A DNA stretch of 64,000 bases from Candidatus Latescibacterota bacterium (GCA_965219995.1 CBDCOX010000002.1:4032001-4096000); one strand, 5' to 3'. Positions 17,349 to 53,883 are shown, counted from the first letter of the stretch. The notes: a model not told the origin generated them from the letters alone. Numbers and translations are program-made.

Positions 17349-20300
17349 ATGGCATTTTCACCTGCGGTTCACGAGACGGATCTGGGGCAGGGGGTCTGCA
17401 TATCGGCGCCTGCGGGGGAATCCTACCAGGATGCGTCCGGTCGTTTGAAAGAGACCCTGGAGGGCGCGCTATCGGCGCCCGTGGACGTGCTTCCCGACGG
17501 GGAACTGGATGCCGGCGGCCGGCACGTGATTGCGCTCGGGAATATGATGGACAGCGCGTTCCTGAAAACGCTCTACTTCCGGGCTTACGACCTCACCGAC
17601 CGGGTGTGGCCGGGCCCCGGGGGATGGGTCGTACGCACGGTGCCTCATTCATTGGACGGTGTGTCTCAGGTCCTCGTGGCGGGCGTGAGCAGCGCGGAGG
17701 ACGCCGGCGAAGCGGCCGGCGCGCTTGCGGGCGCGATCGCGGAGAGTGGTCCAATCCTGCCGATTCAATACCAGGTCCATCCGGGAAGCTGGTCGGACCT
17801 GTACGTGACGCCGGCGAACGAGCTGATCGCAAAGAGCGAAAGGGACCTCGAGCAGGAATCCATCGGCGGGGGATCGGGCGACTGGACCTATATGATGGTT
17901 GTGGCCGATATGGGGATGCTCGCGGTGCAGACGGGAAACGAAGCGTTGATGTCAACGTTCTGCCGGCAGATCTGCCACTTTGCCCGGACGCGCTGGTTCG
18001 AGCGGACGCTGGAGGACCCGACGTTGATTCACGGCTTCATCCGGGTTCTTCTGCTGCCGTTCACGATCCTGGAAAACCATCCCGCGCTTTCCGCCTCACT
18101 CCGGGAGCAGACGCTGGAGGCGCTGCTGGGGCTCTTCAGGTCGGCGGAAGGGGCCGGCAATTCCGGGTTGCTGTCCTGCGTGGGCGTGGACAGGGTGCGC
18201 CAGAACCATCAGACCCGTTCCGCACTGGATATGTTCTACGGAGGCCGCTATTTCCACCAGGTGCATGGGCTCGCGGAGGGATTGGCGTGGATGAAGCTGG
18301 CGGAGGTCTTCTTTGCGCCGCAGATGGGATCGAACAAGCCCGTGTGCGACTCGTGGGGCCATCAGTGGGGGGCTTCGCTGTTCAACACCGCGGATTACGC
18401 GCTGGCGGCGGGGAAGACCGACTACTTTTCGAGCCAGGCCTATCTCGAGGGCGTGGACCGGGCGCTCGTCGCGCACAGCAACCTGGAGCGCGGCCCGGAA
18501 CAGTACTGCCGCATGGCCGCGGCGGTGACGGGCAACGACGAATACCTGCAGCTTTGTGAATCCATCGACGAAGAGGCTGTAGCGGAGCGGACCATTCGAG
18601 GGGCCGAAGAGCCTTTGCGGACCTGGGTGACGGGAAGGCGAGCGGCGGCGCCGGAACGGTTGGGACGCGTCGGCGTGGCCCCTCTCTCGCGGCTGTTCTA
18701 CGATTCGATCGAAGAATATACCACGTTTGCGCCGGAGAATGGCGTGTATCTGCGGAATCTGCCCTACGAACAGACGTTTGACAAGGTGTACTTCCGGTCC
18801 GGATGGACGGACCAGGACGACTACCTGCTGCTGGACGGGATCTCGGGTGGCTCGCACTCCTACCAGGACGGCAACTGCATCGTGCGTTATACCAGCCGGG
18901 GCGCGTCCTGGTTCAGGTTTGCCGGAGGCCACCAGCCGGCGACGGTTCGGGACTACACGGGCGTGAGCGTTTCGGTAGACGGCGCGGGGCCGGGCTGCGA
19001 ATCCAGGTATTCGGCGCTGCGGTATCTGCACGAAGGGGAGAACCTTGCCGTGGCCGGCACGTCGATGACCTATCCTGAGCAGGGCGACTGGTACCGGCAT
19101 ATCGTGTACAGCAGAGAGGGATGGTTTCTGGTGATCGACGAGATCTGGCCCGCCGTGGCGGGAGAATTTCTCGTGGAGTGCCGGTGGCACATTCTGGGCG
19201 ACACGACGCTGACAGACGGCCTGTTGCGGTCGGTTCAGGGAGACGCACAATTGAACATGCGCCACGCGGGGAGCGGGCGCAGGGAACTGGCGGCATCGGA
19301 CTACTGGTGCGCGGAAGACCACTCGCGGTGGATCCAGCGTTCCCTGGCGGCGCTTCGGCCGGGAACGGGGATCCGGTTCGGGACGCTTTTCTGGACCGAC
19401 GCGGTGGGAGATGGAAGGGATTTCAGCCTGGTCGAGGAGAAAAGCGGCTTCCGGATCGAGGGCGGCGGCGACAACGTCAGGATCGTCCTGGAGGAGGGGG
19501 AAGAGAACCCGGCTGTGACCGCCTCCGGCGCGACATTGCCAACAGCCGGTCGTCATGTCGTTGCGTCCGATTCCACGCCATTTCGAACTGTTGGCGGGGA
19601 TGCGAAGCCTGAATGGAGTACGCGGTGTGCGGATGTCGTGACCGCGCTGGATATCGGGTCGGAGAGATGGTTCGGCGGCGACGGCGGCGGGGTGACCGCG
19701 TTCGATCCCGGCGGAGACGTACTCTGGAAGCGAGAGATCGAAGGCGGCGTCCGGGCGCTCGCGGCCCTGAATGACGGCGGTGCGGCGGCGGGCGGCGACG
19801 AGGAGACCGTACACCGGCTGGATGCATCCGGAGAAACCCTCTGGTCGGTTCGGATCCAGTGGCAGTCCATGAACTGGGATAGCTGGTCCAGGAAGAATTG
19901 TGTGGTTTTGAGTCTGGCCGCGGGCGATATCGACGGGGACGGACGGGAGGAGATCCTGGTGGGATGCGCGGACCGTCACGTGTATGCGTTTGATGGCGAG
20001 GGCAATCAATTATGGCGTTCCCCCTGCCAGTGGGGACCGCCGGTTTGCCTGGATACCGCCCGGCTGACGGACGGGCCGGGACGGCAGACGCTCGCCGGCC
20101 TCGCGGATCCCGCCATCCACGCGCACACCCTGGTCTTCGGCAGGGACGGGACGCTGGGGCGGCCGCTGCGGCGGCCGGATATCGTCAGCTGGTCGATTCC
20201 TTCGTGGTCCCGGTGCCTGAGGGTGGCGGACGTGGACGGCGACGGCGGTGACGAGGTGATCAGCGGGGTGGATACCAACCACAGGCAGTTGATTGTGTAC

Positions 20301-20663
20301 GGGCGCGGCGGCGAGGTGATCTGGGACGCGGACATGGGCGGCGGGGTGCTCGCGGCCGAAGCCTTTGACGGGCGGGTATACGCGGGGGCGTCGAACGGAT
20401 TCGTGCAGTGCTTCGACGCCGGGGGTGCGCGTCTGTGGAGCCGGTTTCTGACCGAACGGGTGGCCGGTCTCGCGCCAGGTGGAGATGGAGGCTGTCTGGC
20501 GGCCCTTCGAGGCGGAACCGTCGTGGGTCTGGACGGAAACGGAGAGGTCCGGAAGGCGCACTCCGGAAACCCGGAGATTGCGGTAACGGACTGGGCGTCG
20601 GGATGGCCGGACGGGGGCCTGCTGGTGGGCCGGAAGGATGGGACCATCGAATTCTACCGGTAG
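17349..20663 (+). CDS. Lyase-propeller protein 1 (heparinase II/III-like core + FG-GAP/PQQ-like propeller), 1104 aa
   Basis: RBS GAGGAGG and ATG at 17349; RQNHQT, FDKVYFRSGWTDQDDYLLLDGISGGSHSYQDGN, DIDGDGREEI and DVDGDGGDEV. No signal peptide. Confidence 0.8.
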   Translation: MAFSPAVHETDLGQGVCISAPAGESYQDASGRLKETLEGALSAPVDVLPDGELDAGGRHVIALGNMMDSAFLKTLYFRAYDLTDRVWPGPGGWVVRTVPHSLDGVSQVLVAGVSSAEDAGEAAGALAGAIAESGPILPIQYQVHPGSWSDLYVTPANELIAKSERDLEQESIGGGSGDWTYMMVVADMGMLAVQTGNEALMSTFCRQICHFARTRWFERTLEDPTLIHGFIRVLLLPFTILENHPALSASLREQTLEALLGLFRSAEGAGNSGLLSCVGVDRVRQNHQTRSALDMFYGGRYFHQVHGLAEGLAWMKLAEVFFAPQMGSNKPVCDSWGHQWGASLFNTADYALAAGKTDYFSSQAYLEGVDRALVAHSNLERGPEQYCRMAAAVTGNDEYLQLCESIDEEAVAERTIRGAEEPLRTWVTGRRAAAPERLGRVGVAPLSRLFYDSIEEYTTFAPENGVYLRNLPYEQTFDKVYFRSGWTDQDDYLLLDGISGGSHSYQDGNCIVRYTSRGASWFRFAGGHQPATVRDYTGVSVSVDGAGPGCESRYSALRYLHEGENLAVAGTSMTYPEQGDWYRHIVYSREGWFLVIDEIWPAVAGEFLVECRWHILGDTTLTDGLLRSVQGDAQLNMRHAGSGRRELAASDYWCAEDHSRWIQRSLAALRPGTGIRFGTLFWTDAVGDGRDFSLVEEKSGFRIEGGGDNVRIVLEEGEENPAVTASGATLPTAGRHVVASDSTPFRTVGGDAKPEWSTRCADVVTALDIGSERWFGGDGGGVTAFDPGGDVLWKREIEGGVRALAALNDGGAAAGGDEETVHRLDASGETLWSVRIQWQSMNWDSWSRKNCVVLSLAAGDIDGDGREEILVGCADRHVYAFDGEGNQLWRSPCQWGPPVCLDTARLTDGPGRQTLAGLADPAIHAHTLVFGRDGTLGRPLRRPDIVSWSIPSWSRCLRVADVDGDGGDEVISGVDTNHRQLIVYGRGGEVIWDADMGGGVLAAEAFDGRVYAGASNGFVQCFDAGGARLWSRFLTERVAGLAPGGDGGCLAALRGGTVVGLDGNGEVRKAHSGNPEIAVTDWASGWPDGGLLVGRKDGTIEFYR

Positions 20664-20805: not shown

Positions 20806-23800
20806 ATGAATTTCCGCAAACCGATCCACCAGACGGATCTCACATCGGGCGTCTGCATATCGGCGCCGGATGCCGAGCCGTATCGGGCGGCGGCGCAGCG
20901 TCTTCAATCTGCCCTGCGAGGCGCGGTTTCCGGCAGCGTGGAGATTATTCCCGACGCGCGGCTCGACGCGGGCAGACGCCACGTGATCGCGTTGGGAAAC
21001 ATGATGGACAGCGCGTTCCTGAGAACGCTGTATTTCCGGGCATACGATCTGACCGACAGGGTCTGGCCCGGACCCGGCGGGTGGGCGGTCCGCACAGCGC
21101 CGGATTCCCTGGAAGACGTGGGGCACGTGATTGTTGTTGGGGTGAGCGGCGCGGAGGACATTGTCGGGGCCGCGAATGCCCTCTGCAACGCGATCGAAGG
21201 CGCCGGTACCACGCTACCTTTCCAATACCGGGTACATCCGGGGAGGTGGTCGGATCTGTATCTGACGCCGGCGAGGGAACGGCTGGAGGCAGGCGATGCG
21301 GACCTGGAACGGGAATATACCAGCGGCGCCGGCGACTGGGACTATATGCACGCGATTGCAGACATCGGGATGCTGGCGGTACGGACCGGTCAGGAGGCGC
21401 TGATGGAGATGTTCTGCCGGCAGGTCTGCCATTTTGGACGTACGCGGTGGTTCGAGCGCCATCTGCCGGACCCGCCGCAGATCCACGGGTTCCTGAGGTC
21501 GATGCTGCTGCCGTTTACGATCCTGGAAAATCATCCGTCCATTCCTGCAACCCTGCGAGAGGAGACGCTGGAGGTCTTGCTGGAGCTGTACCGATCCGGG
21601 GAAGGGGCCGGGAACACCGGGTTTCTGAGCCACGTCGGCGTGAACAGGGTTCGGCAGAACCACCAGACCCGGTCGGCGCTGGACCTTTTCTATGGAGGAC
21701 GATATTTCCACCAGGTGCATGGTTTGGCCGAGGGAAGGGCATGGATGAAGCTGGCGGAGGTCTTCTTCGCGCCGCAGATGACGTCCAACAAACCGGTTTG
21801 CGACTCGTGGGGGCACCAGTGGACCGCGTCTCTCTTCAATACGGCGGATTATGCGCTGGCGTCGGGGAGACTGGAATACGTTTCGAGCAGACCGTTCCTG
21901 GAGGGCGTGGACCGGGCGCTGATTGCGCACAGCAACATGGAAGGGGGGCCGCAGCAGTACTTTATGATGGCCGCGGCGGCGACGGGGAACGATGAGTATC
22001 TGCACCTCTGCGGCGTATCCGACGAAGATGCCCTGGCGAAGAATGCCATAAGGGGACGGGAAGAGCCGCTTCGGGGGTGGGTGACAGGGCGACGCGCGCT
22101 GGCTCCGGAGAGGTTGGGAAGGGTGGGCGCGGCGCCGCTCTCGCGGCTGTTCTACGATTCGCTCGAGGGCTTCAGCGGTTTTGCGCCCGAGGGCGTGTAC
22201 CTGCGCGACGTGCCGTTCGAGCAGGCGTTCGACAAGATCTTCTTCCGCTCGGGCTGGACGGATGACGACGACTATTTGCTGTTGGATGGCATCTCGGGCG
22301 GGTCCCATTCGTATCAGGACGGCAACTGCATTGTGCGGTATACGGGGCGGGGAAGGAACTGGTTCGGAGATCGCGTGGGTCCGGCCTCGGTGCGCGACCA
22401 CAACGGAGTGAACATCGCAGTGGACGGGGCGGGCCCCGGACGTGAGTCCCGATACGCCGCATTGAAATACGTTGAGGAGGGTGCAGCGTTTTCGGTGGCG
22501 GGCACTTCGATGCGATATCCCGGTCAGGGCGACTGGTTTCGGCATATCGTATACGGCACGGCGGGGTGGTTTCTCGTGGTCGACGAGATTCGGGCGCGGG
22601 TGGCGGGAGAGTTCCTGGTTGAGGGCCGCTGGCACGTACTCGGGGAGGTGACGCTGTCCGACGGGGTCCTGAGTTCGGTTCAGGGGAATGCGACACTGAA
22701 TATGCGGCACGCGGGCAGCGCGTCGCAGGACCTGATGCGGGTAACCGCAGCCCTTGAAAAGGGTGGCATGCGATGGATCCAGCGCTCATTGAAGGCGCTT
22801 CAGCCGGGCGAAGGGGTGAGGTACGCGACACTTTTCTGGAGTGACAATGTGGAGCAGGCCCGGTCGTACGCGCTGGAACCGGAAGGGTCGGGCTATCGCA
22901 TCGAGGGGCAGGGCAGGTTGGTGACGGTCTCGTTCTCCAAGGACAACGAAGGCGTGAACCTGGAAGCCGATGCAGTCGTACTCCCAGCGGCCGGCCGCAT
23001 CGTCGAAACAACGGACCCGGGGCCGTTTGTAGTCACACAGGCCGAGTCGAAGCCGGTGTGGAGCGGGGCATGCGGCGGAAGGGTGGCGTCGGTCGATGCG
23101 GGGGAGGGGGGCTGCTTCGCGGGCGACGACAGAGGAGGCATCACGGCCTTCGACCTGAACGGCGGTATACGATGGACCCATTCGATATCGGGAGGCGTCC
23201 GGACGGTGCTGGCCCTTGCCGACGGCGGGGTCGTGGCCGGCGGGGAGGCAGAAGCCGTACACCGGCTGGACGGATCGGGCCGTGAGGTATGGTCCTGTCA
23301 ACTCGAGTGGCAGCCGATGAACTGGGACTACTGGACGTGGCTGAACTGTAAGGTCCTCAGCCTCGCGGCCGCCGATATCGACGGCGACGGTCGGGAGGAG
23401 ATTCTGGCCGGCTGCGCCGATCGTCACGTGTACGCGTTCGACGAGGGCGGCGCGTTGTTGTGGCGGTCCGCCTGCCAGTGGGGCCCGCCCACGTGCCTGG
23501 CGGTGGTGCGGTTGCCGGACGGGAAAAGCCGGCATGTGCTGGCGGGAATGGCGGACCCGTCGATTCATGGGTGCGTGCGGGTGTTCGATGCCGAAGGCGA
23601 GTGCGTGGAGACGCTGTCGCGACCGGATATCATGAGCTGGTCGATCCCCTCGTGGTCGAAATGCCTTCGGGCGGCGGACCTGAACGTGGACGGCCTCGAC
23701 GAGGTGATCAGCGGGGTGGATACGAATCACAGGCAGTTGATCGTGTACGGGCACGGCGGCGAGGTGATCTGGGATGCGGACATGGGCGGCGGGGTGCTCG

Positions 23801-24111
23801 CGGCGGAGGTCTGTGGCGGAAGGGTTTACGCAGGCGCGTCGAACGGATTCGTGCAGTGCTTCGACGCTGGCGGCAGGCGGTTATGGAGCAGCTTCCTGGC
23901 CGGACCGGTGGCCGGCCTGGCCCCAGATGGCGATGGAGGTTGTCTGGCGGCCTTGCGAACCGGAACGGTGGTCGTCCTGGACGGTTCCGGAGAGATACGG
24001 ACGACGCACCGCGGAAACTCGAACGTTACGGCGGCGGGCTGGTCCTCCGAGTGGCCGGACGGCGGGTTGCTGGTGGGCCGAAAGGATGGGGCCATCGAAT
24101 TCTACCGGTAG
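20806..24111 (+). CDS. Lyase-propeller protein 2 (mosaic of paralogs 1 and 3), 1101 aa
   Basis: Same motifs as 17349. N-terminus MNFRK as in paralog 3; C-terminus GLLVGRKDG.IEFYR as in paralog 1. Confidence 0.82.
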   Translation: MNFRKPIHQTDLTSGVCISAPDAEPYRAAAQRLQSALRGAVSGSVEIIPDARLDAGRRHVIALGNMMDSAFLRTLYFRAYDLTDRVWPGPGGWAVRTAPDSLEDVGHVIVVGVSGAEDIVGAANALCNAIEGAGTTLPFQYRVHPGRWSDLYLTPARERLEAGDADLEREYTSGAGDWDYMHAIADIGMLAVRTGQEALMEMFCRQVCHFGRTRWFERHLPDPPQIHGFLRSMLLPFTILENHPSIPATLREETLEVLLELYRSGEGAGNTGFLSHVGVNRVRQNHQTRSALDLFYGGRYFHQVHGLAEGRAWMKLAEVFFAPQMTSNKPVCDSWGHQWTASLFNTADYALASGRLEYVSSRPFLEGVDRALIAHSNMEGGPQQYFMMAAAATGNDEYLHLCGVSDEDALAKNAIRGREEPLRGWVTGRRALAPERLGRVGAAPLSRLFYDSLEGFSGFAPEGVYLRDVPFEQAFDKIFFRSGWTDDDDYLLLDGISGGSHSYQDGNCIVRYTGRGRNWFGDRVGPASVRDHNGVNIAVDGAGPGRESRYAALKYVEEGAAFSVAGTSMRYPGQGDWFRHIVYGTAGWFLVVDEIRARVAGEFLVEGRWHVLGEVTLSDGVLSSVQGNATLNMRHAGSASQDLMRVTAALEKGGMRWIQRSLKALQPGEGVRYATLFWSDNVEQARSYALEPEGSGYRIEGQGRLVTVSFSKDNEGVNLEADAVVLPAAGRIVETTDPGPFVVTQAESKPVWSGACGGRVASVDAGEGGCFAGDDRGGITAFDLNGGIRWTHSISGGVRTVLALADGGVVAGGEAEAVHRLDGSGREVWSCQLEWQPMNWDYWTWLNCKVLSLAAADIDGDGREEILAGCADRHVYAFDEGGALLWRSACQWGPPTCLAVVRLPDGKSRHVLAGMADPSIHGCVRVFDAEGECVETLSRPDIMSWSIPSWSKCLRAADLNVDGLDEVISGVDTNHRQLIVYGHGGEVIWDADMGGGVLAAEVCGGRVYAGASNGFVQCFDAGGRRLWSSFLAGPVAGLAPDGDGGCLAALRTGTVVVLDGSGEIRTTHRGNSNVTAAGWSSEWPDGGLLVGRKDGAIEFYR

Positions 24112-24253: not shown

Positions 24254-27200
24254 ATGAACTTCCGCAAAGCGATCCACGAAACGGATCTGTCTTCGGGCAT
24301 CTGCATATCCGCGCCGGATATCCAGCAATACCAGGAAGCGGCGCAGCGTCTTCAATCTGTCCTGGGAGGCGCGGTTTCCGGCAACGTGGAGATTTTGACG
24401 GACACGCGGCTCGACGCGGATGGACGCCACGTGATCGCGTTGGGAAACATGATGGACAGCGCGTTCTTGAAGACACTGTACTTCCGGGCATACGATCTGA
24501 CCGACAGGGTCTGGCCCGGTCCGGGCGGGTGGGCGGTCCGCACCGCGCCGGACTCCCTGGACAACGTAGGGCACGTGATCGTCGTTGGTGTGAGTGGCGC
24601 TGACGACGTTTCCGAGGCGGCGTATGCGCTTTCCCGTACGATTGAGTCCGAGGGCGCCACCCTCCCGTATCAGCAACGGGTGAAGCTCGGCAAGTGGGCG
24701 GACCTGTATCGGAAGCCGGCGCGTGATCGGCTGGACCAGGGGGACGAGGCTCTGGAGCGGGAGTTCACGAGCGGCCCCGGGGACTGGACCTACATGTGGG
24801 CCATCGCAGAGATCGGGATGCTGGCGATACAGACGGGCAGGGAGGATCTGATCCCGATGTTCTGCCGTCAGGTCTGTAACTTCGCGCGCACGCGGTGGTT
24901 CGAGCGCCACCTGCCGGACCCGCCGCAGATCCACGGATTTCTGAGGACCATGCTTCTGCCCTTCACCATTCTGGAGAATCATCCCGCCCTTTCCTGTAAC
25001 CAGCGACAGGAGACGCTGGAGGCATTCCTGGGGCTCTACAGGTCCACGGAGGGCGCCGGAAATTCCGGGTTTCTCAGCCACGTTGGGGTCGACCGCGTGC
25101 GGCAGAACCATCAGACGATGTCGGGGCTGGATCTGTATTATGGAGGACGGTATTTCCACCAGGTACACGGATTGGCCGAAGGGCGGGCGTGGATGAAACT
25201 CGCGGACGTGTTCTTCGCGCCTCAGATGGCGTCGAACAAGCCGGTCTGCGACTCATGGGGGCACCAGTGGGCGTTTTCGCTCTTCAATACCGCCGATTAT
25301 GCATTGGCTTCCGGAAAGATGGACTATTTTTCCAGCAAACCGTACCTGGAAGGCGTGGACCGGGCGCTGATCGCGCACAGCAATCTGGAAGGAGGGCCGC
25401 ATCAGTACATGCTGATGGCCGCGGCGGTCACGGGAAACGACGAATACCTCCGGCTTTGCGGGGCGTCGGATAGCGACGCCCTGGCGGAGAGGGCCGTGCG
25501 GCCGAACGTGGAGCCCTTCCGGACCTGGGTGACCGGACGCGACGCCGCAACGCCGGAGCGGATGGGCCGTGTGGGCGTTGCGCCGCTCTCGCGGCTGTTT
25601 TACGATTCCCTCGAGGATCTCGGTGGATTCGCGCCGGAGGGCGTGTACCTGCGTGACGTTCCATACGAACAGACGTTCGACAAGGTGTATTTCAGGTCCG
25701 GTTGGACGGATGACGACGACTATCTGCTTCTCTGCGGCATATCGGGCGGCTCCCATTCCTACCAGGACGGCAACTGCATCGTCCGGTATACCGGTCGCGG
25801 GCGGAACTGGTTCGGAGGGCGCGTGGGTCCGGCCTCGGTAAGGGATCACAACGGGGTCAGCATCGCGGTTGACGGCGCGGGGCCGGGTTGCGAGTCCCGG
25901 TACGCCGCCCTTCGATACCTGGAGGAGGGAGATGGCCTGTCCGCGGCCGGGACGTCGATGGGTTATCCCGGACAGGCGGACTGGTACCGGCATATCGTAC
26001 ACGGCAGGCAGGGGTGGTTTCTGGTTATCGACGAGGTCTGGGCGAAGGCGGAAGGCGAGTACCTGATCGAGTGCCGCTGGCACGTGTACGGAGACGTGGA
26101 AACGGTCGACGGCGGGATTCGTTCAGTCCAGGACGACGCGAAGCTGGAAATGCGGCATTCGGGAAGCGGATCCCGGGAGTTGATTCCGGTGACCTCGGCG
26201 CTGGCAAACGAAGGAACGCGGTGGGTGCAGCGCTCGCTGAAATCGCTTCGGGCCGGAGAAGGCGTGCGGTTCGCGACACTTTTCTGGAGTGACCAAGAGG
26301 CGCGGCCCCGGAATTACGCACTGGTACCGGAAGCGTCAGGTTACCGGATTGAAGGCGAGGGCGAGGCGTCCACGATTTCGCTTTCGGCAGGATGTGAGGA
26401 TGTCAACATCGAGGCTCAGGTGGCCGTACTTCCAACTACCGGTAACGCCGAGGATGCGTCGGACGCCGGGCCGTTCATTGCTTCGGGCGGAGACGCGAGG
26501 ACGGCCTGGCGCGGACAGTGTGGCTCGGCCGTGAAAACGGTGGACGTTTGGGCGGGAGGATGTTTCGCGGGTGACGAGAGCGGCGGCATCACGGCATTCG
26601 ACCGGAACGGCGGGAAACGGTGGACCCATTCCGTGTCAGGGAGAATCCGGACGGTCCTTGCCCTTGCCGACGGCGGGGTGGTGGCCGGCGGGGATGGCGA
26701 AGCCGTTCATCGGCTGGACGCGTCGGGCAGGGAAGTGTGGGCGTATCAGCTCGAGTGGCAGCCCATGAACTGGGACTACTGGACGTGGCTGAACTGCAAA
26801 GTCCTCAGCCTCGCGGCCGCCGATATCGACGGTGACGGCCGGGAGGAGATCCTGGCGGGTTGCGCGGATCGTCACGTGTACGTGTTCGACGAGGACGGCG
26901 CGCTGTTGTGGCGTTCGGCCTGCCAGTGGGGTCCCCCCACGTGCCTTGAGGTGGCGCGGCTGCGTGACGGGGAGAGCCGGCATGTGCTGGCGGGGATGGC
27001 GGACCCGTCGATTCACGGATGCGTGCGGGTGTTCGATTCCGACGGGGCGTGTGTGGAGACGCTGTCGCGGCCGGATATCATGAGCTGGTCGATCCCCTCG
27101 TGGTCGAAGTGCCTTCGGACGGGGGACCTGGACGGGGACGGCCTCGACGAGGTGATCAGCGGCGTGGATACGAATCACAGGCAGTTGATCGTCTATAGCG

Positions 27201-27547
27201 GGGACGGCGAGGTGATGTGGGATGCGGACGTCGGGGGTGCCGTGCTATCCATCGCGGTTGCCGGCGGGAGGGTGTACGCGGGTGCTTCGAATGGTTACGT
27301 ACAGTGTTTCGAGTCGGATGGCGTGCGGATGTGGTACCGGTTTCTGGCGGCGCCAGTGGTCGGCCTGTCGCCCCGGGGCGGCGGTGGATGCCTGGCGGCC
27401 CTGGGGGATGGACGAACTGCCGGACTGAATGGCAACGGCGGGATGGCGTGGGCCGGTGGCGGCACTGCGATCGCCGCGGCGGCGGCGTGGCTGGAGGGGG
27501 GGCTGCTGGTGGGCAGGCGGGACGGATCGGTGGAGTGCTTCGGATAG
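24254..27547 (+). CDS. Lyase-propeller protein 3, 1097 aa
   Basis: RQNHQT, FDKVYFRSGWTDDDDYLLLCGISGGSHSYQDGN and FG-GAP DxDGDG repeats. No signal peptide. Confidence 0.82.
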   Translation: MNFRKAIHETDLSSGICISAPDIQQYQEAAQRLQSVLGGAVSGNVEILTDTRLDADGRHVIALGNMMDSAFLKTLYFRAYDLTDRVWPGPGGWAVRTAPDSLDNVGHVIVVGVSGADDVSEAAYALSRTIESEGATLPYQQRVKLGKWADLYRKPARDRLDQGDEALEREFTSGPGDWTYMWAIAEIGMLAIQTGREDLIPMFCRQVCNFARTRWFERHLPDPPQIHGFLRTMLLPFTILENHPALSCNQRQETLEAFLGLYRSTEGAGNSGFLSHVGVDRVRQNHQTMSGLDLYYGGRYFHQVHGLAEGRAWMKLADVFFAPQMASNKPVCDSWGHQWAFSLFNTADYALASGKMDYFSSKPYLEGVDRALIAHSNLEGGPHQYMLMAAAVTGNDEYLRLCGASDSDALAERAVRPNVEPFRTWVTGRDAATPERMGRVGVAPLSRLFYDSLEDLGGFAPEGVYLRDVPYEQTFDKVYFRSGWTDDDDYLLLCGISGGSHSYQDGNCIVRYTGRGRNWFGGRVGPASVRDHNGVSIAVDGAGPGCESRYAALRYLEEGDGLSAAGTSMGYPGQADWYRHIVHGRQGWFLVIDEVWAKAEGEYLIECRWHVYGDVETVDGGIRSVQDDAKLEMRHSGSGSRELIPVTSALANEGTRWVQRSLKSLRAGEGVRFATLFWSDQEARPRNYALVPEASGYRIEGEGEASTISLSAGCEDVNIEAQVAVLPTTGNAEDASDAGPFIASGGDARTAWRGQCGSAVKTVDVWAGGCFAGDESGGITAFDRNGGKRWTHSVSGRIRTVLALADGGVVAGGDGEAVHRLDASGREVWAYQLEWQPMNWDYWTWLNCKVLSLAAADIDGDGREEILAGCADRHVYVFDEDGALLWRSACQWGPPTCLEVARLRDGESRHVLAGMADPSIHGCVRVFDSDGACVETLSRPDIMSWSIPSWSKCLRTGDLDGDGLDEVISGVDTNHRQLIVYSGDGEVMWDADVGGAVLSIAVAGGRVYAGASNGYVQCFESDGVRMWYRFLAAPVVGLSPRGGGGCLAALGDGRTAGLNGNGGMAWAGGGTAIAAAAAWLEGGLLVGRRDGSVECFG

Positions 27548-40468: not shown

Positions 40469-41305
40469 TTGGGACCGGTCCGTGTGCGGCCTTCGGGGGT
40501 ATTGCGGGCGCTCCTGATCGCGGGCGTCGCCGCGTTCGCGCTGTTTCCGTTTCTGGTCGTCGCGGGGACTTCCCTGAAGACGCTGGGCGAAGTGTTTCAG
40601 TCGCCGGCGACGCTGGTGCCCAGACTGTTTGCGTGGCAGAATTATGTGGATATCTTCGTCCGGATTCCAATGACGCGCCATCTGGCGAACAGTCTGATCA
40701 TCGCTGTGGGAACCACGGTTCTGAACATTGCCGTGGCGACTCCGGCGGCCTACGCGATGGCGCGCATCCGGTTTCGCGGCCGCGGGGCGTTCGGGCTGGG
40801 CATCCTCGTGATGCAGATGTTTTCCCCCGTGATCGTTCTGATTCCCCTGTTCAAGGTGATGAAGTCGCTTCATCTTCTGGACACGTACAGCGGCCTGATT
40901 CTGGTGAATACCGCCGTTACCCTGCCGTTTTCGATATGGATCCTGGCTGGGTTCTTCAGGCGCATTCCGGAAGAACTGGAAGATGCCGCGATGATCGACG
41001 GCCTATCCAGAACGGGGATGCTGTTCAGGATCGCCCTGCCGCTGACCGGGCCTGGGCTGGCGACAACCGCGATCTTTGCGTTCGTGACCGCCTGGAACGA
41101 GTTCATCTTCGCCCTGGTACTGGTTTCCCGGAGGGAAATGCAGCCGATCACGATGGCGCTCTATTCGTGGGAAAAGAACAACGTGGTGGAATGGAACCTG
41201 CTGATGGCGACCGCGGTGGTGGCGACGATTCCAACCGTGCTGCTGTTTCTGCTGGTCAGGAAGCGGCTGACGGCGGGTCTGATGGCGGGTGCGGTGAAGT
41301 CCTGA
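40469..41305 (+). CDS. Sugar ABC transporter permease (MalG/UgpE-like), TTG start, 278 aa
   Basis: NSLIIA, AAYAMAR, IPEELEDAAMIDG (EAA loop) and AWNEF; RBS AGGAGG. Confidence 0.9.
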   Translation: MGPVRVRPSGVLRALLIAGVAAFALFPFLVVAGTSLKTLGEVFQSPATLVPRLFAWQNYVDIFVRIPMTRHLANSLIIAVGTTVLNIAVATPAAYAMARIRFRGRGAFGLGILVMQMFSPVIVLIPLFKVMKSLHLLDTYSGLILVNTAVTLPFSIWILAGFFRRIPEELEDAAMIDGLSRTGMLFRIALPLTGPGLATTAIFAFVTAWNEFIFALVLVSRREMQPITMALYSWEKNNVVEWNLLMATAVVATIPTVLLFLLVRKRLTAGLMAGAVKS

Positions 41306-42570: not shown

Positions 42571-42759
42571 ATGGCCGGAACACGGATCGAGACGCTGAAG
42601 GAGATGCACCTGACGACGGACCTCAGGGAGGGGGCGGAGATCGTGGCGCTGTTGAGCGCCGGTGGCGTGACGGCGCTGGCCGATCTGCATCTCACCGGCG
42701 GTCCGGGCCTTCTGGCAGGCACGGACAGGGGTGTGATCACCGCGTTGAGCCGGGCATGA
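42571..42759 (+). pseudogene. Internally deleted remnant (62 codons, in frame) of a lyase-propeller gene
   Basis: The N-part LKEMHLTTDLREGAEI is encoded by 48 bp identical to 46073..46120. The C-part AGGVTAL....GGPGLLAGTDRGVITALS resembles the C-terminus of 46048..49716 (AAGVTVL....GKPGLLVGTDGGILCALS). Confidence 0.8.
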
Positions 42760-46047: not shown

Positions 46048-49000
46048 TTGGCCGAGCGAAAGATCGACAGGTTGAAGGAGATGCACCTGACGACGGACCT
46101 CAGGGAGGGGGCGGAGATCGCGGCGCCGGTGGACCCGGACTGGGCGCCTCTTGGCAGGCGGTTTCAGGAGATGGTCCGCGCGCATGCGGGAGTGGACCTG
46201 GCTGTCGTGGATCCGGCCTGCCTGCCGCCCCTGCCCGACGGCCGCCACCGCGTCCTGCTGGGCAATGCGATGGTAAACGACTCGATCATGGCGCTGTACC
46301 GGCGGCAATACGCGTACGTGGACGAGTTTTATCCGGGAGGGGACGGGTATGCGGTCCGGACGGTGCACAACCCGGAGAACTGCGGCCGCAACGTGCTGCT
46401 GGTGGGCGCAAGCAGCGTGGAGGGCGCGGCCGCGGCGCTCGAGGCGCTGGAGGGCGTCCTAAAGGAGACCGGTGGGCGTCTGGGGTATACCAATCTGTCG
46501 CAGTCGGAGGTCCACCAAACGCTCCTGCCGGAGATGACGCCGGATGCGTTCCGGGCGTGGGTGGCGGAAATGTACCGGGACAATCTCAGCTATTACCCGG
46601 TGGAGCAGGCGACGTTCCTGGGGCTGGTCCACCATCTGACGAACGATCCCGGCTGCGCCCGGATGTTCCGGGATGCCCTGTTTTACTACGAGGACCTGGT
46701 GAGGAACCGCTACGGTGGGAACTGGCTGTTCGAGCATATGCTGTTCATCTATTCCTGGGCATGGCGGCTGTTCATGGTCTGGGACCTCATAGAGGAAAGC
46801 GATGCGTTTACGGACGTGGAACGACTCCGCATCACCAATGTATTGTGGGGACTGGCGAATTACGTGGCCGGTACGCGCTATTTCGAGGGCGAGACGCCGC
46901 CCCCGTCCGAGATCCGGCAGAACCACTGGACGTTTGCGGGGCTGAGCGGGTCGTTCTGCGCACGGTATTTCGAGGATTATTACGGGATCGGGAGATTCGA
47001 GAAGCAGATCCGGTTCTCGCAGGCGGTTTTCGACGGTCAGGCGGACAGCTACAAGCCGAACGACGACGCGGGAGGCGGATGGTGGGGTTACTGCTGGTTG
47101 GCGCCATATCACCAGGTAATCTACGATCTGAAGCGGGACGACTTCCGCTTCCTGGAGAACGGCCAGCTTCGCGCCTTTGCCGACTACGGCATCCAGGTGA
47201 CGGACAATCTCGGCGTGCCGGTGAGCTTTGGCGATATGTGGTCCTACGTTGAGCAGGGACGTTATGCGGTGGCGCTGAAGAGCAAGACCATCTCGCTCGA
47301 GTTGGCAATGGCCCTGTGTACGGCGGCCTGGTACTATGAGGACGGGAGCTATCTGTGGGCGCTGGACTGGATGGGGGGCGCGCCGTATCCGGGCTGTTTC
47401 TACAGGGCGCTGCCGAAGCGGCCGCCCGACCGGCTGACCGGGGTCACCGTTGCGCCGTTCAACCGTTCGCTCTACGACTGGGTGGAGCGTTACGCGCCGA
47501 CCGGAGCGAACGTGCCGATCGAAGAGGCGTTCGACAAGCTGGTCCTGCGCGGTGGGTTCGACAGGGACGACGAATATCTGTTGCTGGACGGGACGTCGAC
47601 GTTCGCGCACGGACACGAGGACGGCAACTCGATCGGGCGGCTGACGTGGAAGGGGCGGATGTGGCTGGCGGAACTGGACTACATCTGGAAGCGGCCCCGG
47701 CACCACTGTTCCGTTGTGTCGATCTGTGGTGGCGAAACCGCGCCGATGCCGCCGCTGGTGGCGTTGAAGTGGGCGGAGGCGTTCGGCGGGACGTCATTGA
47801 CGCGCACCGTTGCGCCCGGATATAACGGCCTGGACTGGACGCGGGATATCTTCTGGGTAAAGGGCCGGTTCTTTCTGGTTGCGGACTCGCTAAGGCTGCT
47901 TCGTGACGCGGATTACGATCTCAAGTGCCTCTGGCGGACGCTTGGCGACATCCGGCAGAAAGGTCGTGAGCTGATCGTGGAACAGGAGGGAGTACACTTC
48001 CGGATTCTGAACGCGGACGATTCGGAACCGTCCCTCCTGACGGAAGAAGCCCGCGTTGCCGGAACCGACCCATACGAATTGTACCCGTACGCGGACGGCC
48101 CGATCCGGATTTTCAGCCAGCACAAGGCGCTGCATGGCCGTCCCGGAGACGTGGAGCGATTCTTCAACCTGATGGCGGCGGGGTCGGAGGCGGAGATCGA
48201 TGCATGGCGAATCGATCGCATCGAAGAGGGCCTTGTGAAGGCGGCGCATCCGGACGGGTCCACTGTCGTGGGTGTTGTCGACGGGGAGGCGGAGATAGGA
48301 GGCTTAAGGATCGCCGCCGAGGTCGTGGTGCTGACCGAAACGTCCGTAGTGCTGCTCGACGCGACGGTTCTCCGGGCGGATGACGCCATGTTCGAGAGCG
48401 AGGCTCCGGTGCATCTGGCTCTGTATCCAGGTGAGAGACGCGGGGAAGTTCGTGTAAGGGAAGAGATTGGCGTCCGAACCAGGGGCGTCTCTTTTGACGG
48501 GGCGGGACCTGCACCGGACAGCCTTCCGGCCGGGACGCACGAGATCAGCATCGAAACCGGCCTTCAGGATGTCATTCACGAGGCCCTTCGGGCCGGCACG
48601 CCCTACGTACATCGAAGAGCGCCGAGAGCGCATGGGTTTGTCCCGAAGGATATGTCCATCGCGCGTCTCTGGGAAGCGCAGGTCGGGGGACCGGTCCGGT
48701 GTATCGAAGCGAGGGGTGAATCGACAGCCGTCGGCACAGCCGCGGGACAGGTGCTTTTGCTGGACCGGGAAGCGCGAGTCAGATGGACGCGCGAGACCGG
48801 CGCCGGGGTGCGCGCCGTGCATCTCACCGGCCTGGGGGAAGGACGCCTTCTGGCCGGCGGCCGGGACCGTGCGTTGACGATGTTCGATGCCGACGGGGAG
48901 ATTTGTTGGCGACGGGCGTTCTCAGAGTCTCACGGGGTGGACCAGAATGTGAACGCGGTGACGACGGCGGACCTGACCGGCGATGGAAAACCGGTCATCC

Positions 49001-49716
49001 TGACGGCGACGGACGGCTGGCTGGTGTGGGCGCTGGCGCCGGATGGCGAGGAAGTCTGGCAGCGGCAGATCGAACACCACGCCGCACGGACCCTGGTGAT
49101 CGGAGACGTGGAGGGCGACGGAAAGCAGGAAATCCTGGTGGGCGCCGAATATTACACGTCGAATCTGCTGGAGTCCGACGGAAGGATCCGGTGGACGGTG
49201 AACGGGGGCCCCTGTTTTTCGGCCCTGGCCCTCGCGGACCTGAACGGCGACGGAGTGAAGGAAGCGATTTACGGGGCCATGGACGGGAACGTCTACGCGG
49301 TGGATTCAATATCCGGAAAGATCCTCTGGACGGCCAACCTGGGAGACGACGTCCGTCACGGCGTGACGGTTGGTGGGAAGGGATTCGCGGCGGGAAGTGA
49401 GAGCGGCCACGTGGCGCTGCTGAACGGCCGGGGCAAGAAGCGCTGGCGACGCGACCTGGACGGCGGCGTGACGGGAATGGTTCTTCTGGAGGCCGCCGGC
49501 GAAAAGATGATCGCGGCGGGGACCTCCGACGGGTGGGTCGTGTTCCTGTCCATCGATGGGGAGGTTCTCGGCAGCCACCGCATGGCAGCGGGCGTGACCG
49601 TGTTATCCCGCCTGTCGTCGCCCGGGAAGCCCGGTCTGCTGGTGGGGACGGACGGGGGCATATTGTGCGCGCTCAGTACCGGTGCGGCGCCTTTGGAATT
49701 GCGAATGAATCCGTGA
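46048..49716 (+). CDS. Lyase-propeller protein 5 (divergent paralog), TTG start, 1222 aa
   Basis: FYPGGDGYAVRTVHNP, IRQNHW, FDKLVLRGGFDRDDEYLLLDGTSTFAHGHEDGNSI, and DLTGDG/DVEGDG/DLNGDG repeats. No signal peptide. Confidence 0.82.
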   Translation: MAERKIDRLKEMHLTTDLREGAEIAAPVDPDWAPLGRRFQEMVRAHAGVDLAVVDPACLPPLPDGRHRVLLGNAMVNDSIMALYRRQYAYVDEFYPGGDGYAVRTVHNPENCGRNVLLVGASSVEGAAAALEALEGVLKETGGRLGYTNLSQSEVHQTLLPEMTPDAFRAWVAEMYRDNLSYYPVEQATFLGLVHHLTNDPGCARMFRDALFYYEDLVRNRYGGNWLFEHMLFIYSWAWRLFMVWDLIEESDAFTDVERLRITNVLWGLANYVAGTRYFEGETPPPSEIRQNHWTFAGLSGSFCARYFEDYYGIGRFEKQIRFSQAVFDGQADSYKPNDDAGGGWWGYCWLAPYHQVIYDLKRDDFRFLENGQLRAFADYGIQVTDNLGVPVSFGDMWSYVEQGRYAVALKSKTISLELAMALCTAAWYYEDGSYLWALDWMGGAPYPGCFYRALPKRPPDRLTGVTVAPFNRSLYDWVERYAPTGANVPIEEAFDKLVLRGGFDRDDEYLLLDGTSTFAHGHEDGNSIGRLTWKGRMWLAELDYIWKRPRHHCSVVSICGGETAPMPPLVALKWAEAFGGTSLTRTVAPGYNGLDWTRDIFWVKGRFFLVADSLRLLRDADYDLKCLWRTLGDIRQKGRELIVEQEGVHFRILNADDSEPSLLTEEARVAGTDPYELYPYADGPIRIFSQHKALHGRPGDVERFFNLMAAGSEAEIDAWRIDRIEEGLVKAAHPDGSTVVGVVDGEAEIGGLRIAAEVVVLTETSVVLLDATVLRADDAMFESEAPVHLALYPGERRGEVRVREEIGVRTRGVSFDGAGPAPDSLPAGTHEISIETGLQDVIHEALRAGTPYVHRRAPRAHGFVPKDMSIARLWEAQVGGPVRCIEARGESTAVGTAAGQVLLLDREARVRWTRETGAGVRAVHLTGLGEGRLLAGGRDRALTMFDADGEICWRRAFSESHGVDQNVNAVTTADLTGDGKPVILTATDGWLVWALAPDGEEVWQRQIEHHAARTLVIGDVEGDGKQEILVGAEYYTSNLLESDGRIRWTVNGGPCFSALALADLNGDGVKEAIYGAMDGNVYAVDSISGKILWTANLGDDVRHGVTVGGKGFAAGSESGHVALLNGRGKKRWRRDLDGGVTGMVLLEAAGEKMIAAGTSDGWVVFLSIDGEVLGSHRMAAGVTVLSRLSSPGKPGLLVGTDGGILCALSTGAAPLELRMNP

Positions 49717-50834: not shown

Positions 50835-51803
50835 ATGCGCGACATCAGAATCGGCGCCGCCCAGTTCGAAGCGAGAGACGCCGATAAGCCGTACAACCTG
50901 TCCCGTATCGAGGCCCTCACGAAGCGGGCAGTCGACGCGGGCGCAGAAGTCGTTTCCTTCCACGAGTGCAGCATTCCCGGTTACACCTTTCTGCAGACCC
51001 TCTCCCGTTCCCGCATCGCCGAACTCGCCGAACCCGTTCCAGGGGGACCCTCCACGAAACGCCTGACCGAAATCGCAAGGGAGTACGACGTCGCCGTGCT
51101 GGCAGGCCTCGTGGAAATCGAAAGCGACACCCTTTACAATACGTACGTCGCCGTGGGTCCGAACGGCTTCATCGCGAAACACCGCAAGCTGCACGCGTTC
51201 ATCAGCAGATTCATCGACTCGGGTGACGCGTTTACCGTCTTCGACCTCTGCGGCTGCCGCGTGGGCATCCTGATCTGTTATGACAACAACCTGCCCGAGA
51301 ACGTGCGCCTGACCGCCATGATGGGCGCCGAAATCGTGTTCATGCCGCACGTCACCTGCGGGCTGCCCTCCTCCATGCCGGGCCGGGGTGTCATCGACCG
51401 CGCCCTGTGGGAGAACCGTCACCGCGATCCCGTGTCCCTCCGCCAGGAGTTCAACGGGCCGAAGGGACGGGGTTGGCTCATGCGCTGGCTGCCGGCGCGG
51501 GCGTACGAGAACGGTGTATACGCCGTATACACCAATCCTATCGGCATCGACCACGACACCGTCAAGAACGGCAATGCGATGATTCTGGACCCGTTCGGTG
51601 AGATCGTGGTCGAATCCGACGCCCTCGAAGACGACGTGGTGGTGGGCCTGCTCACCCCCGAAAAGATACCCGTCTCGTCAGGGTACCGATATCTTCGCGC
51701 GCGCCGCCCCGACCTTTACGGTAAGCTGACGGACCCCCTGCCGTCCGACATGCAGGCGGGCACGAATCCGGGCTGGAAACTGAAGGACCCGGATGATGGC
51801 TAG
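50835..51803 (+). CDS. Carbon-nitrogen hydrolase (nitrilase superfamily), 322 aa
   Basis: Catalytic triad intact: FHEC (E), HRKLH (K) and ILICYDN (C); also ARAYENG and RRPDLY. Confidence 0.9.
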   Translation: MRDIRIGAAQFEARDADKPYNLSRIEALTKRAVDAGAEVVSFHECSIPGYTFLQTLSRSRIAELAEPVPGGPSTKRLTEIAREYDVAVLAGLVEIESDTLYNTYVAVGPNGFIAKHRKLHAFISRFIDSGDAFTVFDLCGCRVGILICYDNNLPENVRLTAMMGAEIVFMPHVTCGLPSSMPGRGVIDRALWENRHRDPVSLRQEFNGPKGRGWLMRWLPARAYENGVYAVYTNPIGIDHDTVKNGNAMILDPFGEIVVESDALEDDVVVGLLTPEKIPVSSGYRYLRARRPDLYGKLTDPLPSDMQAGTNPGWKLKDPDDG

Positions 51804-51903: not shown

Positions 51904-53883
51904 ATGGCGCAGAGTTCCGCAGCACAGACAGCGTCCGGGTCCCACGCCGCGCCGCAATCCGACGCGGTGACGCTTCGCGCCGTCGCCATCGGCCTGCTGC
52001 TGGTGCTCGTCGTCAATTTCTGGATCTCAATCACCGAGTACGTCATCCACGCCTCGCGGATGCAACTCTCCTTTTTCCCCCTCGCCCTCTTCGCCACCTT
52101 CCTCCTGCTGGTCATCGCCAACGGATTCGTCCGCCGGATCCGGCCGCACAGCGCCCTTCAGTCGTCGGAACTGCTCACCGTCCTGGCAATGGGATTCGTC
52201 GGCGCCGTAGTGCCCACCTCGGGCATCACGGGATTTCTCCTGGGCATTCTATCCGGCGTCTACTATTTCGCTACCCCGGAGAACCAGTGGGCGAACTATC
52301 TGCATCCGAATATGCCCGGCTGGGCCGTGCCTTCGAACGAAAATCACGCGATGACCTGGTTTTACGAGGGCCTGCCCGAGGGGCAGCAGGCGCCGTACCA
52401 GGCCTGGATTGCGCCGCTCATCAGCTGGGTTTTCTTCCTGTTCGCCCTTTGCACGCTCCTGTTCTGCATCGCGGTGATCCTCCGCAAACAGTGGGTTCGG
52501 AACGAGCGACTGGTCTTTCCGCTTGCTTCCGTGGGGGCCACGCTGACGCGCGCCGACCGGGGCGGTTTTCTGCCCGATGCCCTTCGCGGTGGCCTCTTCT
52601 GGGGTGGCTTCGGCGTGGGGTTCGGCGCCATTTCCTGGAATATCCTCAATTACTTCTGGCCGGTGGTCCCCAGGATTCCCCTCCAGGGCAAATGGGTCGT
52701 CTTTGCGAAGGGCTTTCCGCGCGTAAACACCCGCATCAACTTTCTCACCGCGGGATTCGCGTACTTCGCGAACCTGAATATCCTGTTCTCCATCTGGGTT
52801 TTCTTCGTCCTCTTCTTCTGGTTTGAAAACGGCATCATCAACCGCATCGGCTACGTCATCCCGCGCAAGCCGCTCAACTTTTCGGCCGAGACCGAAGTCA
52901 CCGCCTGGCAGGGATTCGGCGCGCTGACCGTGCTGGTGCTGTGGAACCTCTGGACCGCGCGCACGCATATCAGGGCCGTCTTCGCCAGGGCGTTCGGGAA
53001 AGGCGATGCCGACGATGCCGGGGAACTGCTTTCCTACAGGTTCGCCGTGTTCGGACTCGTCGGCAGCCTCGTCTTCATCTGCGCCTTCTTTGCCCGACTG
53101 GGTATGCAGGGCAAGCTCGTCGCGCTGCTCGTGCCGGCTCTGATCGTCAACTATCTCTCCATCGCCCGCATCGTCTGCGAGACCGGACTGGCCTATATGC
53201 GGACCACGCTGACCGAACAGTACGCCGCCCTGTACACGATCGGCACCAGGGCGCTTTCGCCCGCAAGCATGTCCGGCGTCAGTCTCACGTACAGCCTTGT
53301 CTGCCAGGGCAAGGGCACGTTCATGTCCCCCTTCATGCACGTGGTCCGACTCGCGGACCTCATCCGACGGAACAGGCGGCGGCTCGTCCCCGCCCTGGCG
53401 CTGGTGGTCGTCGTGGGCCTCGCGGCCGACTTCGCCCTCACGATCTTCCTGGGTTATCGGACCGGCGCGTTCAACTTCAATGCGTGGCCCTTCTCCAGCG
53501 CAGGCCGATTCGCCTACGACCTGACGGTGACGCAGATGCGGAGTCCCTTCGACACCAGTTGGGAGCGCCTGGCCGTCTTCTGCGTTGGCGCCGCCGCAAT
53601 GTCTCTGCTTACTTTTCTGCACTATCGTCTGCCGTGGTGGCCGTTCCATCCCATCGCGTTTCCGATTGCCTTTTCCTGGAACACCCAGCTTACCGTCTTT
53701 TCCATTTTCGTCGTCTGGGCCATCAAGGCCATCCTGCTCAAGGTCGGCGGCGTCAACCTGTACCGGAAGTGGCAACCCGCCTTTCTGGGGCTGCTGACCG
53801 GATATGTTCTGGCGATCACGTTATCCTTCGTCGTGGACGCGATCTGGTTTCCCGGCCAGGGACACGGCGTGCACAATTACTAG
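51904..53883 (+). CDS. DUF6785/DUF6784-type polytopic membrane protein (paralog 3), 659 aa
   Basis: TLRAVAIG, YFATPENQW, ILRKQW...ERLVFPLA and WWPFHPIA; ends in WFPGQGH.VH like paralog 1. Confidence 0.78.
   Translation: MAQSSAAQTASGSHAAPQSDAVTLRAVAIGLLLVLVVNFWISITEYVIHASRMQLSFFPLALFATFLLLVIANGFVRRIRPHSALQSSELLTVLAMGFVGAVVPTSGITGFLLGILSGVYYFATPENQWANYLHPNMPGWAVPSNENHAMTWFYEGLPEGQQAPYQAWIAPLISWVFFLFALCTLLFCIAVILRKQWVRNERLVFPLASVGATLTRADRGGFLPDALRGGLFWGGFGVGFGAISWNILNYFWPVVPRIPLQGKWVVFAKGFPRVNTRINFLTAGFAYFANLNILFSIWVFFVLFFWFENGIINRIGYVIPRKPLNFSAETEVTAWQGFGALTVLVLWNLWTARTHIRAVFARAFGKGDADDAGELLSYRFAVFGLVGSLVFICAFFARLGMQGKLVALLVPALIVNYLSIARIVCETGLAYMRTTLTEQYAALYTIGTRALSPASMSGVSLTYSLVCQGKGTFMSPFMHVVRLADLIRRNRRRLVPALALVVVVGLAADFALTIFLGYRTGAFNFNAWPFSSAGRFAYDLTVTQMRSPFDTSWERLAVFCVGAAAMSLLTFLHYRLPWWPFHPIAFPIAFSWNTQLTVFSIFVVWAIKAILLKVGGVNLYRKWQPAFLGLLTGYVLAITLSFVVDAIWFPGQGHGVHNY

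Follow-up and report, generated by a model that had tools for sequence, protein, structure and literature searches.

A candidate glycan-utilisation island of lyase-propeller proteins, OPT-fold membrane proteins and PhyH oxygenases without a SusC/SusD pair in a Candidatus Latescibacterota genome

The DNA studied here, the window, is a stretch of 64,000 nucleotides from a Candidatus Latescibacterota genome of 5.44 Mb that is 98.6% complete (G000:C2:4032001-4096000). Positions are counted from its first letter unless preceded by C2, and genes are named by their start positions. The window carries genes for lyase-propeller (LP) proteins, DUF6785+DUF6784 membrane proteins, PhyH-family oxygenases and a sugar-type ABC system (Table 1). 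Eleven co-directional plus-strand genes occupy 17349-41305 with gaps of -4 to 142 nt; the first-pass annotation, made from the sequence alone, had described this 24-kb run as including a sugar ABC transporter, and the run was recovered, except that the ABC ATPase gene lies outside it on the minus strand. The second block it had reported (LP, UxuA, carbon-nitrogen hydrolase, DUF6785) was found again at 46081-53883, the ATG at 46081, behind a GGAG, being a likelier start for the fifth LP than the TTG at 46048. It had also placed a propeller and a PhyH gene at 1-1514; the PhyH gene (651-1514) stood, and the propeller (1-618) proved to be the end of a sixth LP, which is complete (1287 aa) and begins 3245 nt before the window.

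Table 1. Genes of the window that belong to or adjoin the lyase-propeller island.
Feature	Position	Strand	Basis
LP, HY clade (His for Tyr): GH20b-like N-domain, helical toroid, beta-sandwich, propeller	17349..20663	+	motifs RQNH, KPVCDSWGHQW, GSHSYQD
LP, HY clade, modelled copy (N285, H286, H337, H501, Y503)	20806..24111	+	model pLDDT 93.1, Foldseek, propeller 745-1101
LP, HY clade, 73% identity to 20806	24254..27547	+	sequence comparison
LP, divergent HY clade member, ~25% identity to the other three tandem copies	27580..30903	+	sequence comparison, tree
PhyH-family Fe(II)/2-oxoglutarate oxygenase, H-G-G replacing H-x-D/E	30939..31823	+	PF05721
Right-handed beta-helix + PKD protein, possible export signal	31855..34245	+	PF13229, PF18911; weak PelN match
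DUF6785+DUF6784 membrane protein, OPT/Yellow-Stripe fold	34242..36227	+	model pLDDT 92.7; 7wst, 7wsr matches
DUF6785+DUF6784 paralogue, copy kept in cassette in three genera	36347..38317	+	domain matches, synteny
Sugar-type ABC solute-binding protein	38337..39590	+	domain/family matches
Two sugar-type ABC permeases	39600..40466, 40484..41305	+	domain/family matches
MalK/UgpC-type ABC ATPase, convergent with the 11-gene run	41332..42447	-	domain/family matches
Signal-bearing DUF4962/Hepar_II_III protein; N-N-H kept, without catalytic His, apparently without Tyr	42756..45509	+	
LP with canonical set (RQNH, G-Y-C-W, H-G-H-E-D)	46081..49716	+	
UxuA-family dehydratase, 7 paralogues in genome	49802..50743	+	over NCBIfam cut-offs NF003027, TIGR00695
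Carbon-nitrogen hydrolase	50835..51803	+	domain match
DUF6785+DUF6784 paralogue	51904..53883	+	domain match
Signal-bearing heparinase II (PL21)-like lyase, catalytic residues kept	9530..12361	+	2fut E 6e-105
End of sixth LP (Tyr kept, second His -> Gln)	1..618	+	start at G000:C2:4028755
PhyH-family oxygenase with H-Q-D	651..1514	+	
PhyH-family oxygenase with H-Q-D, absent from the first-pass annotation	15489..16283	+	

An island of ~100 kb, whose downstream part the window covers, holds 9 of the genome's 13 LP paralogs. Upstream, it continues with a DUF6785-FtsX/M28-DUF6785 trio, several GFO oxidoreductases, three further DUF4962/Hepar_II_III genes and four further LPs, among them the one that ends at 618; besides LPs, the whole island has four Hepar_II_III genes, the heparinase II-like 9530 and GFO oxidoreductases. 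Genome-wide, we counted 13 LP, 23 DUF6785, 42 Hepar_II_III_C, 78 PhyH, 20 sulfatase and 27 TonB plug matches, with ~55 heparinase-fold genes in all. The absence of SusC/SusD and TonB-dependent receptors from the window, noted earlier, was upheld: no TonB plug was found inside the 64 kb, and SusD_RagB (PF07980 being the one profile searched) had no match in the 98.6% complete genome. The nearest TonB plug matches lie at C2:3964325 and C2:4163530; the receptor at C2:3964325, ~15 kb before the island's first heparinase-fold gene, could be the island's outer-membrane step.

The LP protein 20806 was modelled from an 80-row alignment (pLDDT 93.1, pTM 0.91) as an alpha/beta N-domain, a helical region (~150-455), a beta-sandwich and a propeller (745-1101). 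The core combines the helical toroid and antiparallel beta-sheet domain of the heparinase fold, and Foldseek matched it to HepC, Atu3025, GAGase II/VII, exoHep, dermatan-sulfate epimerase 1 (DS-epi1) and Alg17c at 10-13% identity (E 1e-15 to 4e-12, TM by target 0.46-0.64). Together with lyase-type catalytic motifs, these matches bear out the earlier proposal of a heparinase II/III lyase fold. Atlas neighbours of LP at 0.94-0.97 include Hepar_II_III/DUF4962 clusters. In a Z-scored structure search with the whole model, the matches listed were all propellers, so the core carries no Z-score. The propeller is of a generic eight-bladed type (Z up to 37.8), with a lambda-carrageenase-propeller Pfam match and generic WD40/BamB-type top structural matches. 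The N-domain gave nothing significant against the PDB and Pfam but is similar (probability 87) to the GH20b-like domain found in the DUF4838 protein of the window. For the core of five LPs, no Pfam or NCBIfam match (Hepar_II_III_C, DUF4962, HepB) was obtained, and the best profile match in the PDB was HepC at E 5e-4. Set apart by these comparisons, the LPs are probably a new polysaccharide-lyase family.

A core profile built from 11 paralogues found 1401, 1062 and 709 clusters at E<=1e-3, 1e-10 and 1e-30, respectively, and, with 8 candidates scored per genome, LPs were found in 65 of the phylum's 151 genomes. Copy numbers in five members of the family are 13, 12, 10, 5 and 4, and most of 30 more distant genomes have one. 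By a hydrophobicity heuristic on N-termini, not SignalP, a hydrophobic N-terminus was seen in 0 of 13 LPs, consistent with the cytoplasmic location proposed earlier, and in 10 of 42 Hepar_II_III proteins.

Catalytic columns were counted in 171 aligned cores (13 own, 150 representatives among the matches listed and 8 added HY relatives); alignment columns were used instead of regex motif counts, which missed many rows. N285, H286, R481 and H501 were kept in 159, 168, 171 and 169 rows, and position 337 was Tyr in 136. His/Tyr/His sets have been given for the heparinase II/III-type fold (PMC12088678, PMC7904915). A PL15-like paralogue has S-H-S-H at this site, with its first His aligned to H501 (hhalign probability 98) and equivalent to Atu3025 His531, and the LPs carry the catalytic His of H-x-H-x-D (HepII His406, Atu3025 His531). 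The spacing of the LP residues is 51/164, against 54/166 in Atu3025 and 53/165 in exoHep (residue numbers from PMC12088678 Table 4 and PMC7904915). The catalytic Tyr is present, by a weak positional mapping, in 46081 and the family majority, position 337 being aligned with it at probabilities of only 30 and 50 with matching spacing.

In the four tandem copies, the catalytic-Tyr position is His throughout and the metal-site His position is Tyr/Phe; 46081 lies outside that clade. Among the 150 representatives, positions 337/503 were Tyr/His in 125, His/Tyr in 15, His/Phe in 1 and other in 9. In a FastTree tree (midpoint root, the two diagnostic columns removed), all 31 rows with Tyr/Phe at 503 formed one clade with no other tips (support 0.68; 0.98 for 30 of them). 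We rejected a reciprocal Tyr/His catalytic swap, since the catalytic His is the first of H-x-H (3afl H531A) and Tyr503 therefore replaces the second, metal-site His. Independent co-variation of 337 and 503 was also rejected, because both changes mark one clade. Two LP paralogues (C2:4006360-4010061 and C2:2183876-2188108) have S-R-H for Q-N-H and Arg at 501, and are possibly degenerate and non-catalytic.

The four HY proteins might instead not cleave chains at all: they could epimerise C5, hydrate or remove an unsaturated uronate cap in place of GH88, or only bind, which we consider unlikely. All nine toroid-fold lyases in Table 4 of PMC12088678 use Tyr where this clade has His, and GAGase II His403, matching the second His of H-x-H-x-D that the clade has lost, is required for activity according to the same paper. 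DS-epi1 shares the fold, and GH88 is missing though 9530 should release capped oligomers. However, the clade has lost neither Asn-His nor His501, and its His337 (74 of 80 rows of the 20806 alignment) hardly varies down to ~35% identity, which argues for catalysis; His can serve as a general acid. Position 503 is Phe in 15 of 74 rows, so Tyr503 is not a relocated catalytic Tyr. The GH88/KduI gap is the main unexplained point, and for this reason a hydratase or epimerase role was kept in consideration.

The protein 9530 aligned to heparinase II (2fut) over 690 residues with equivalents of His202, Glu205, Tyr257, His406 and His408 kept, and scored 424 bits against NF045571 (HepB equivalog), under the cut-off of 600. 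Of the exported lyases suggested earlier, 9530 has both a signal and its catalytic residues, whereas 42756, without the catalytic His and apparently the Tyr, is doubtful as a canonical active lyase. The third, beta-helix protein 31855, has a hydrophobic N-terminal stretch with no basic n-region when orthologue N-termini are compared, and its PDB matches were confined to the PKD domain and a weak xylosidase N-terminus. For PhyH 30939, HGG was found in all 11 orthologue alignments covering the site. H-x-G/A replaces H-x-D/E in 17 of 77 aligned PhyH proteins of the genome, a pattern that we take to be that of Fe(II)/2-oxoglutarate (Fe/2OG) halogenases.

The suggestion that DUF6785 proteins are transporters gained support from structure. 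A model of 34242 (pLDDT 92.7, 117-row alignment) matched barley YS1 alone (E 1.8e-9 for 7wst and 3e-8, next 0.075; TM 0.62-0.69), and the comparison with 7wsr gave Z 22.4 and rmsd 4.3 over 555 aligned residues, with the next match at Z 5.1; the YS1 fold extends over the whole chain. None of 74 DUF6785 members matched Pfam OPT (PF03169) at E<=1. Atlas neighbours at 0.77-0.79 are named peptide/OPT transporters, which is a lead only. YS1 itself transports Fe(III)-phytosiderophore by a proton-driven elevator mechanism (PMC9691689). In a 2011 survey, prokaryotic OPTs were uncharacterised and mostly inferred to be peptide carriers, and one bacterial subcluster was inferred from context to take up xylan oligosaccharides (PMC3061005), a precedent that favours glycan import. 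We found no literature on DUF6785 or DUF6784 in a search outside which most subscription journals fell. The models suggest a bacterial OPT-fold family, possibly with carbohydrate cargo. We regard as improbable the more specific combination of OPT-fold import of acidic oligosaccharides, His/His heparinase-fold elimination or hydration replacing GH88/KduI, and an H-x-G Fe/2OG oxygenase that modifies the sugar beforehand.

DUF6785 is a lineage-wide expansion, with 20-48 copies per genome in family members. In the window genome, 4 of 23 copies flank FtsX/M28 giants, and none of the three window copies does. At C2:3997582-4006298, a DUF6785 gene, a 1571-aa M28-like/FtsX giant and a second DUF6785 gene stand directly upstream of two LPs; similar DUF6785/giant pairs occur at loci L020 and L023.

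We then asked how far these genes form a system. An LP is found no more than 5 genes away from five of the 23 DUF6785 genes, where a gene-order rotation null predicts 0.48 (p 0.002); all five are in the island. PhyH genes showed marginal enrichment within 3 genes of LPs (5/13 against 1.3 expected, p 0.045; within 5 genes, against 2.0 expected, p 0.11). In relatives G122, G065 and G150, three genera of the window genome's family, the HY-LP, PhyH 30939, beta-helix, DUF6785 36347 and LP 46081 genes keep their order at 74-92% identity. The 15 closest loci came from metagenome-assembled genomes (MAGs) labelled Candidatus Latescibacterota (11), Gemmatimonadota (3) and uncultured bacterium (1). These results indicate that the island is real and conserved in the family.

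Beyond the family, the association was lost. The first-pass annotation had proposed a glycan-utilisation system of LP, DUF6785 and PhyH proteins, and had named a lack of enriched co-localisation in other genomes as a reason to abandon it. Among 31 distant LP loci (26 genomes; neighbours identified by BLAST to seed proteins of the window genome), DUF6785 was found at 1, PhyH at 6, enolase-superfamily genes at 11 and Hepar_II_III at 3. Among 34 HY-clade metagenome loci, DUF6785 was found at 1, apparently the same locus as the distant-genome case and with GNAT, MscS and SulP genes lying between, and PhyH at 9 (two pairs redundant). Many distant loci are shorter than 20 kb; for the 14 full-length loci from DUF6785-bearing genomes, ~1 match was expected by chance and 1 was seen. 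The idea of a general module was therefore rejected for genomes beyond the family.

The tie between the ABC system and the LPs, also proposed earlier, held in part. Orthologues of the binding protein (67-71%) and permeases (74-80%) adjoin an LP in four genomes of g18, a genus from another family, which we count as one independent case. Within the family, ABC genes accompany the cassette in G122 only and are missing from the stretches examined for G065 and G150. We scanned 116 chosen neighbours, taken from 3 genome loci and from 14 of the 34 metagenome loci. The latter 14, scanned in part, had sulfatases in 5, DUF2961 in 5 and single GH95, GH20, GH106 and alpha-L-arabinofuranosidase-domain genes. 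Together with the enolase-superfamily genes at 11 of the 31 distant loci, these are neighbours of a carbohydrate type and favour a glycan role for the LPs.

These distributions also fit, in our view with somewhat low probability, a cluster of independently expanded catabolic families in which the LP array arose by tandem duplication. DUF6785 and PhyH would then be general-purpose, their substrate need not be that of the LPs, and the cargo of the carriers may be peptides, chelates or other small organic compounds. The 23 DUF6785 and 78 PhyH genes of the genome speak for it, and so do the counts elsewhere: of 30 genomes with an LP, 23 have DUF6785 matches (4 to at least 35 each) and the 7 of family f10 have none. 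None of the 18 non-island DUF6785 genes is near an LP, their neighbours including aminotransferases, amidohydrolases, methyltransferases and FtsX/M28 giants. The PhyH genes beside distant LPs are best matches to other paralogues and not orthologues of the window PhyH genes; the sparse DUF6785 at distant loci and the ABC genes missing from two cassettes point the same way. On the other side stand the same orthologues in the same order in three genera, and the overlap and short gaps that fit one operon. DUF6785 also lies near a heparinase-fold gene (within 5 genes) in 9 of 23 cases against 2.4 expected (p 0.002), but outside the island in only 4 of 18 against 1.5 (p 0.085).

RNA-library data spoke neither for nor against expression of the island. 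Three runs contained 6% of the sampled words, contigs of relatives covered 30, 19 and 22 of 30 bins, and in one run single contigs spanned 30939/31855 and 34242/36347; DNA carry-over is possible in all of these, and there was no silent control for the bins. A promoter and terminator scan of the sequence stayed at chance level (3 vs 3.4; 13 vs 11.7).

On balance, we lean towards a lineage-specific island without SusC/SusD, resembling a polysaccharide utilisation locus (PUL), for acidic (uronate-containing, possibly sulfated) glycans. The exported heparinase II-like 9530, the upstream PL15-like genes and perhaps the beta-helix protein 31855 would cut the polymer, and oligomers would enter via the sugar ABC system and, less certainly, via the OPT-fold DUF6785 carriers. 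Cytoplasmic LPs would cleave them by beta-elimination, the Asn-His pair holding the carboxylate, the invariant His501 taking the C5 proton, and the leaving group receiving its proton from Tyr in 46081 or, in the four tandem copies, from His337. As there is no clear GH88 or KduI, the likeliest route would be exo-type cleavage to monomers, followed by reduction/dehydration to 2-keto-3-deoxy acids and the genome's single KDPG aldolase.

Several points weigh against this reading. The equivalence of Tyr337 was drawn from motif, spacing and a weak profile alignment, not from superposed coordinates, and the LP core also shares the fold of DS-epi1 (6hzn, E 2e-12, TM 0.54 by target). The conservation of the cassette within the family may reflect shared ancestry, the DUF6785-LP link fails outside it, and the enolase-type and sulfatase counts in distant loci are raw, their background rate being unmeasured. 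None of the genome's 20 sulfatases is in the island. Peptides and metal chelates are the cargo of the characterised OPT-fold carriers (PMC3061005, PMC9691689). Neither KduI nor UxaC is present in the window genome, where GH88 has one sub-cutoff match; among 12 family members, KduI was found in none and GH88 over the cut-off in one (27.2 bits, partial).

In a set of 22 chosen genomes, KduI was found in 2 and GH88 over the cut-off in 5. The textbook lyase route is incomplete in the window genome, and UxuA, placed by the first-pass annotation in hexuronate catabolism, serves the saturated-uronate route and not lyase products. Exo-lyase digestion of polyuronates does not depend on GH88 or KduI, whereas an uncapping enzyme is required for hetero-glycans, heparan among them. 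PL12/PL21 lyases and GH88 have been reported in lake Latescibacteria (PMC4454575).

Other features of the window were recorded. The 142-nt spacers 20664-20805 and 24112-24253 are 93% identical, against 64-73% protein identity of the flanking genes, which suggests recent conversion or duplication. Each contains a ~40-nt repeat with ~90 genome matches and another copy at 53899-53946; a second short intergenic repeat family (51805-51850) has ~70. At 42585-42649, a 65-nt relic is 94% identical to the 5' end of LP 46081, and LP-like sequence occupies that place in G122 and G065, so an LP gene was probably deleted there. The region 1549-8939 encodes a peptidase M55, a DUF4838 protein with a GH20b/GH67N-like N-domain, a multiheme cytochrome c (4264-5502), an oxidoreductase-like protein (6981) and a pectin-acetylesterase-like esterase (8088). 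M55 also adjoins HY-LPs in loci L123 and L125, and a DUF4838 orthologue adjoins an LP in two g18 genomes. An ECF sigma factor and zinc-finger anti-sigma gene (12654-15135), divergent from the island genes and also near the cassette in G065, are a possible regulator. On the minus strand, 54083-59586 holds two GWxTD/TPR genes and an enolase-superfamily (MR_MLE) gene, of a kind that often flanks distant LPs. The short open reading frames 16297-16581 and 45616-45858 are presumably fragments of an HTH antitoxin and a minimal nucleotidyltransferase.

The analysis offers testable functions for two large families that lack annotation, both from an uncultured lineage. Of the new elements, we rank the LP family and its His-for-Tyr clade highest: with at least 709 clusters the family is a candidate new polysaccharide-lyase family, and the clade allows a direct test of whether the Tyr acid is obligatory in the heparinase fold. 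New LP specificities, if there are any, would be useful in analysing glycosaminoglycans or algal glycans, and ~55 heparinase-fold genes without clear GH88, KduI or UxaC imply an undescribed downstream route. In the literature portions accessible to us, we found no description of LP, DUF6785 or a toroid/propeller lyase family; MAG-paper supplements could list such genes.

Compared with known heparinase-fold lyases (PL12 HepC 4mmh, PL15 Atu3025 3a0o, exoHep 6lja, PL17 Alg17c 4ojz, PL21 HepII 2fut, PL35 GAGase II 8khv), the LPs share the toroid and beta-sandwich core, and the family has the Asn-His, Tyr and H-x-H-x-D motifs at matching spacing. They differ in the added GH20b-like N-domain and C-terminal propeller, the lack of an export signal and the low identity, and the HY clade differs further in its two substitutions. 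DS-epi1 has the same core fold but is eukaryotic and biosynthetic, whereas the LP neighbours are catabolic. DUF6785 shares a whole-length fold with the OPT/Yellow-Stripe carriers (barley YS1, 7wsr/7wst) at 10-15% identity, without their PF03169 match. In its 78 PhyH of ~3955 called genes, the window genome resembles Poribacteria, for which a PhyH expansion of >1.9% has been reported (PMC3909097). Latescibacteria class UBA2968 is named among polysaccharide-degrading sponge lineages (PMC8163846), and alginate lyases are listed in sponge Latescibacterota MAGs (PMC12993501). Like the SusC/SusD PULs of Bacteroidota, the island clusters exported and internal enzymes predicted to cleave glycans with putative importers; unlike them, it contains no SusC/SusD pair, with no SusD in the genome, and has instead an inner-membrane ABC system and OPT-fold carriers, and most heparinase-fold enzymes of the genome look cytoplasmic.

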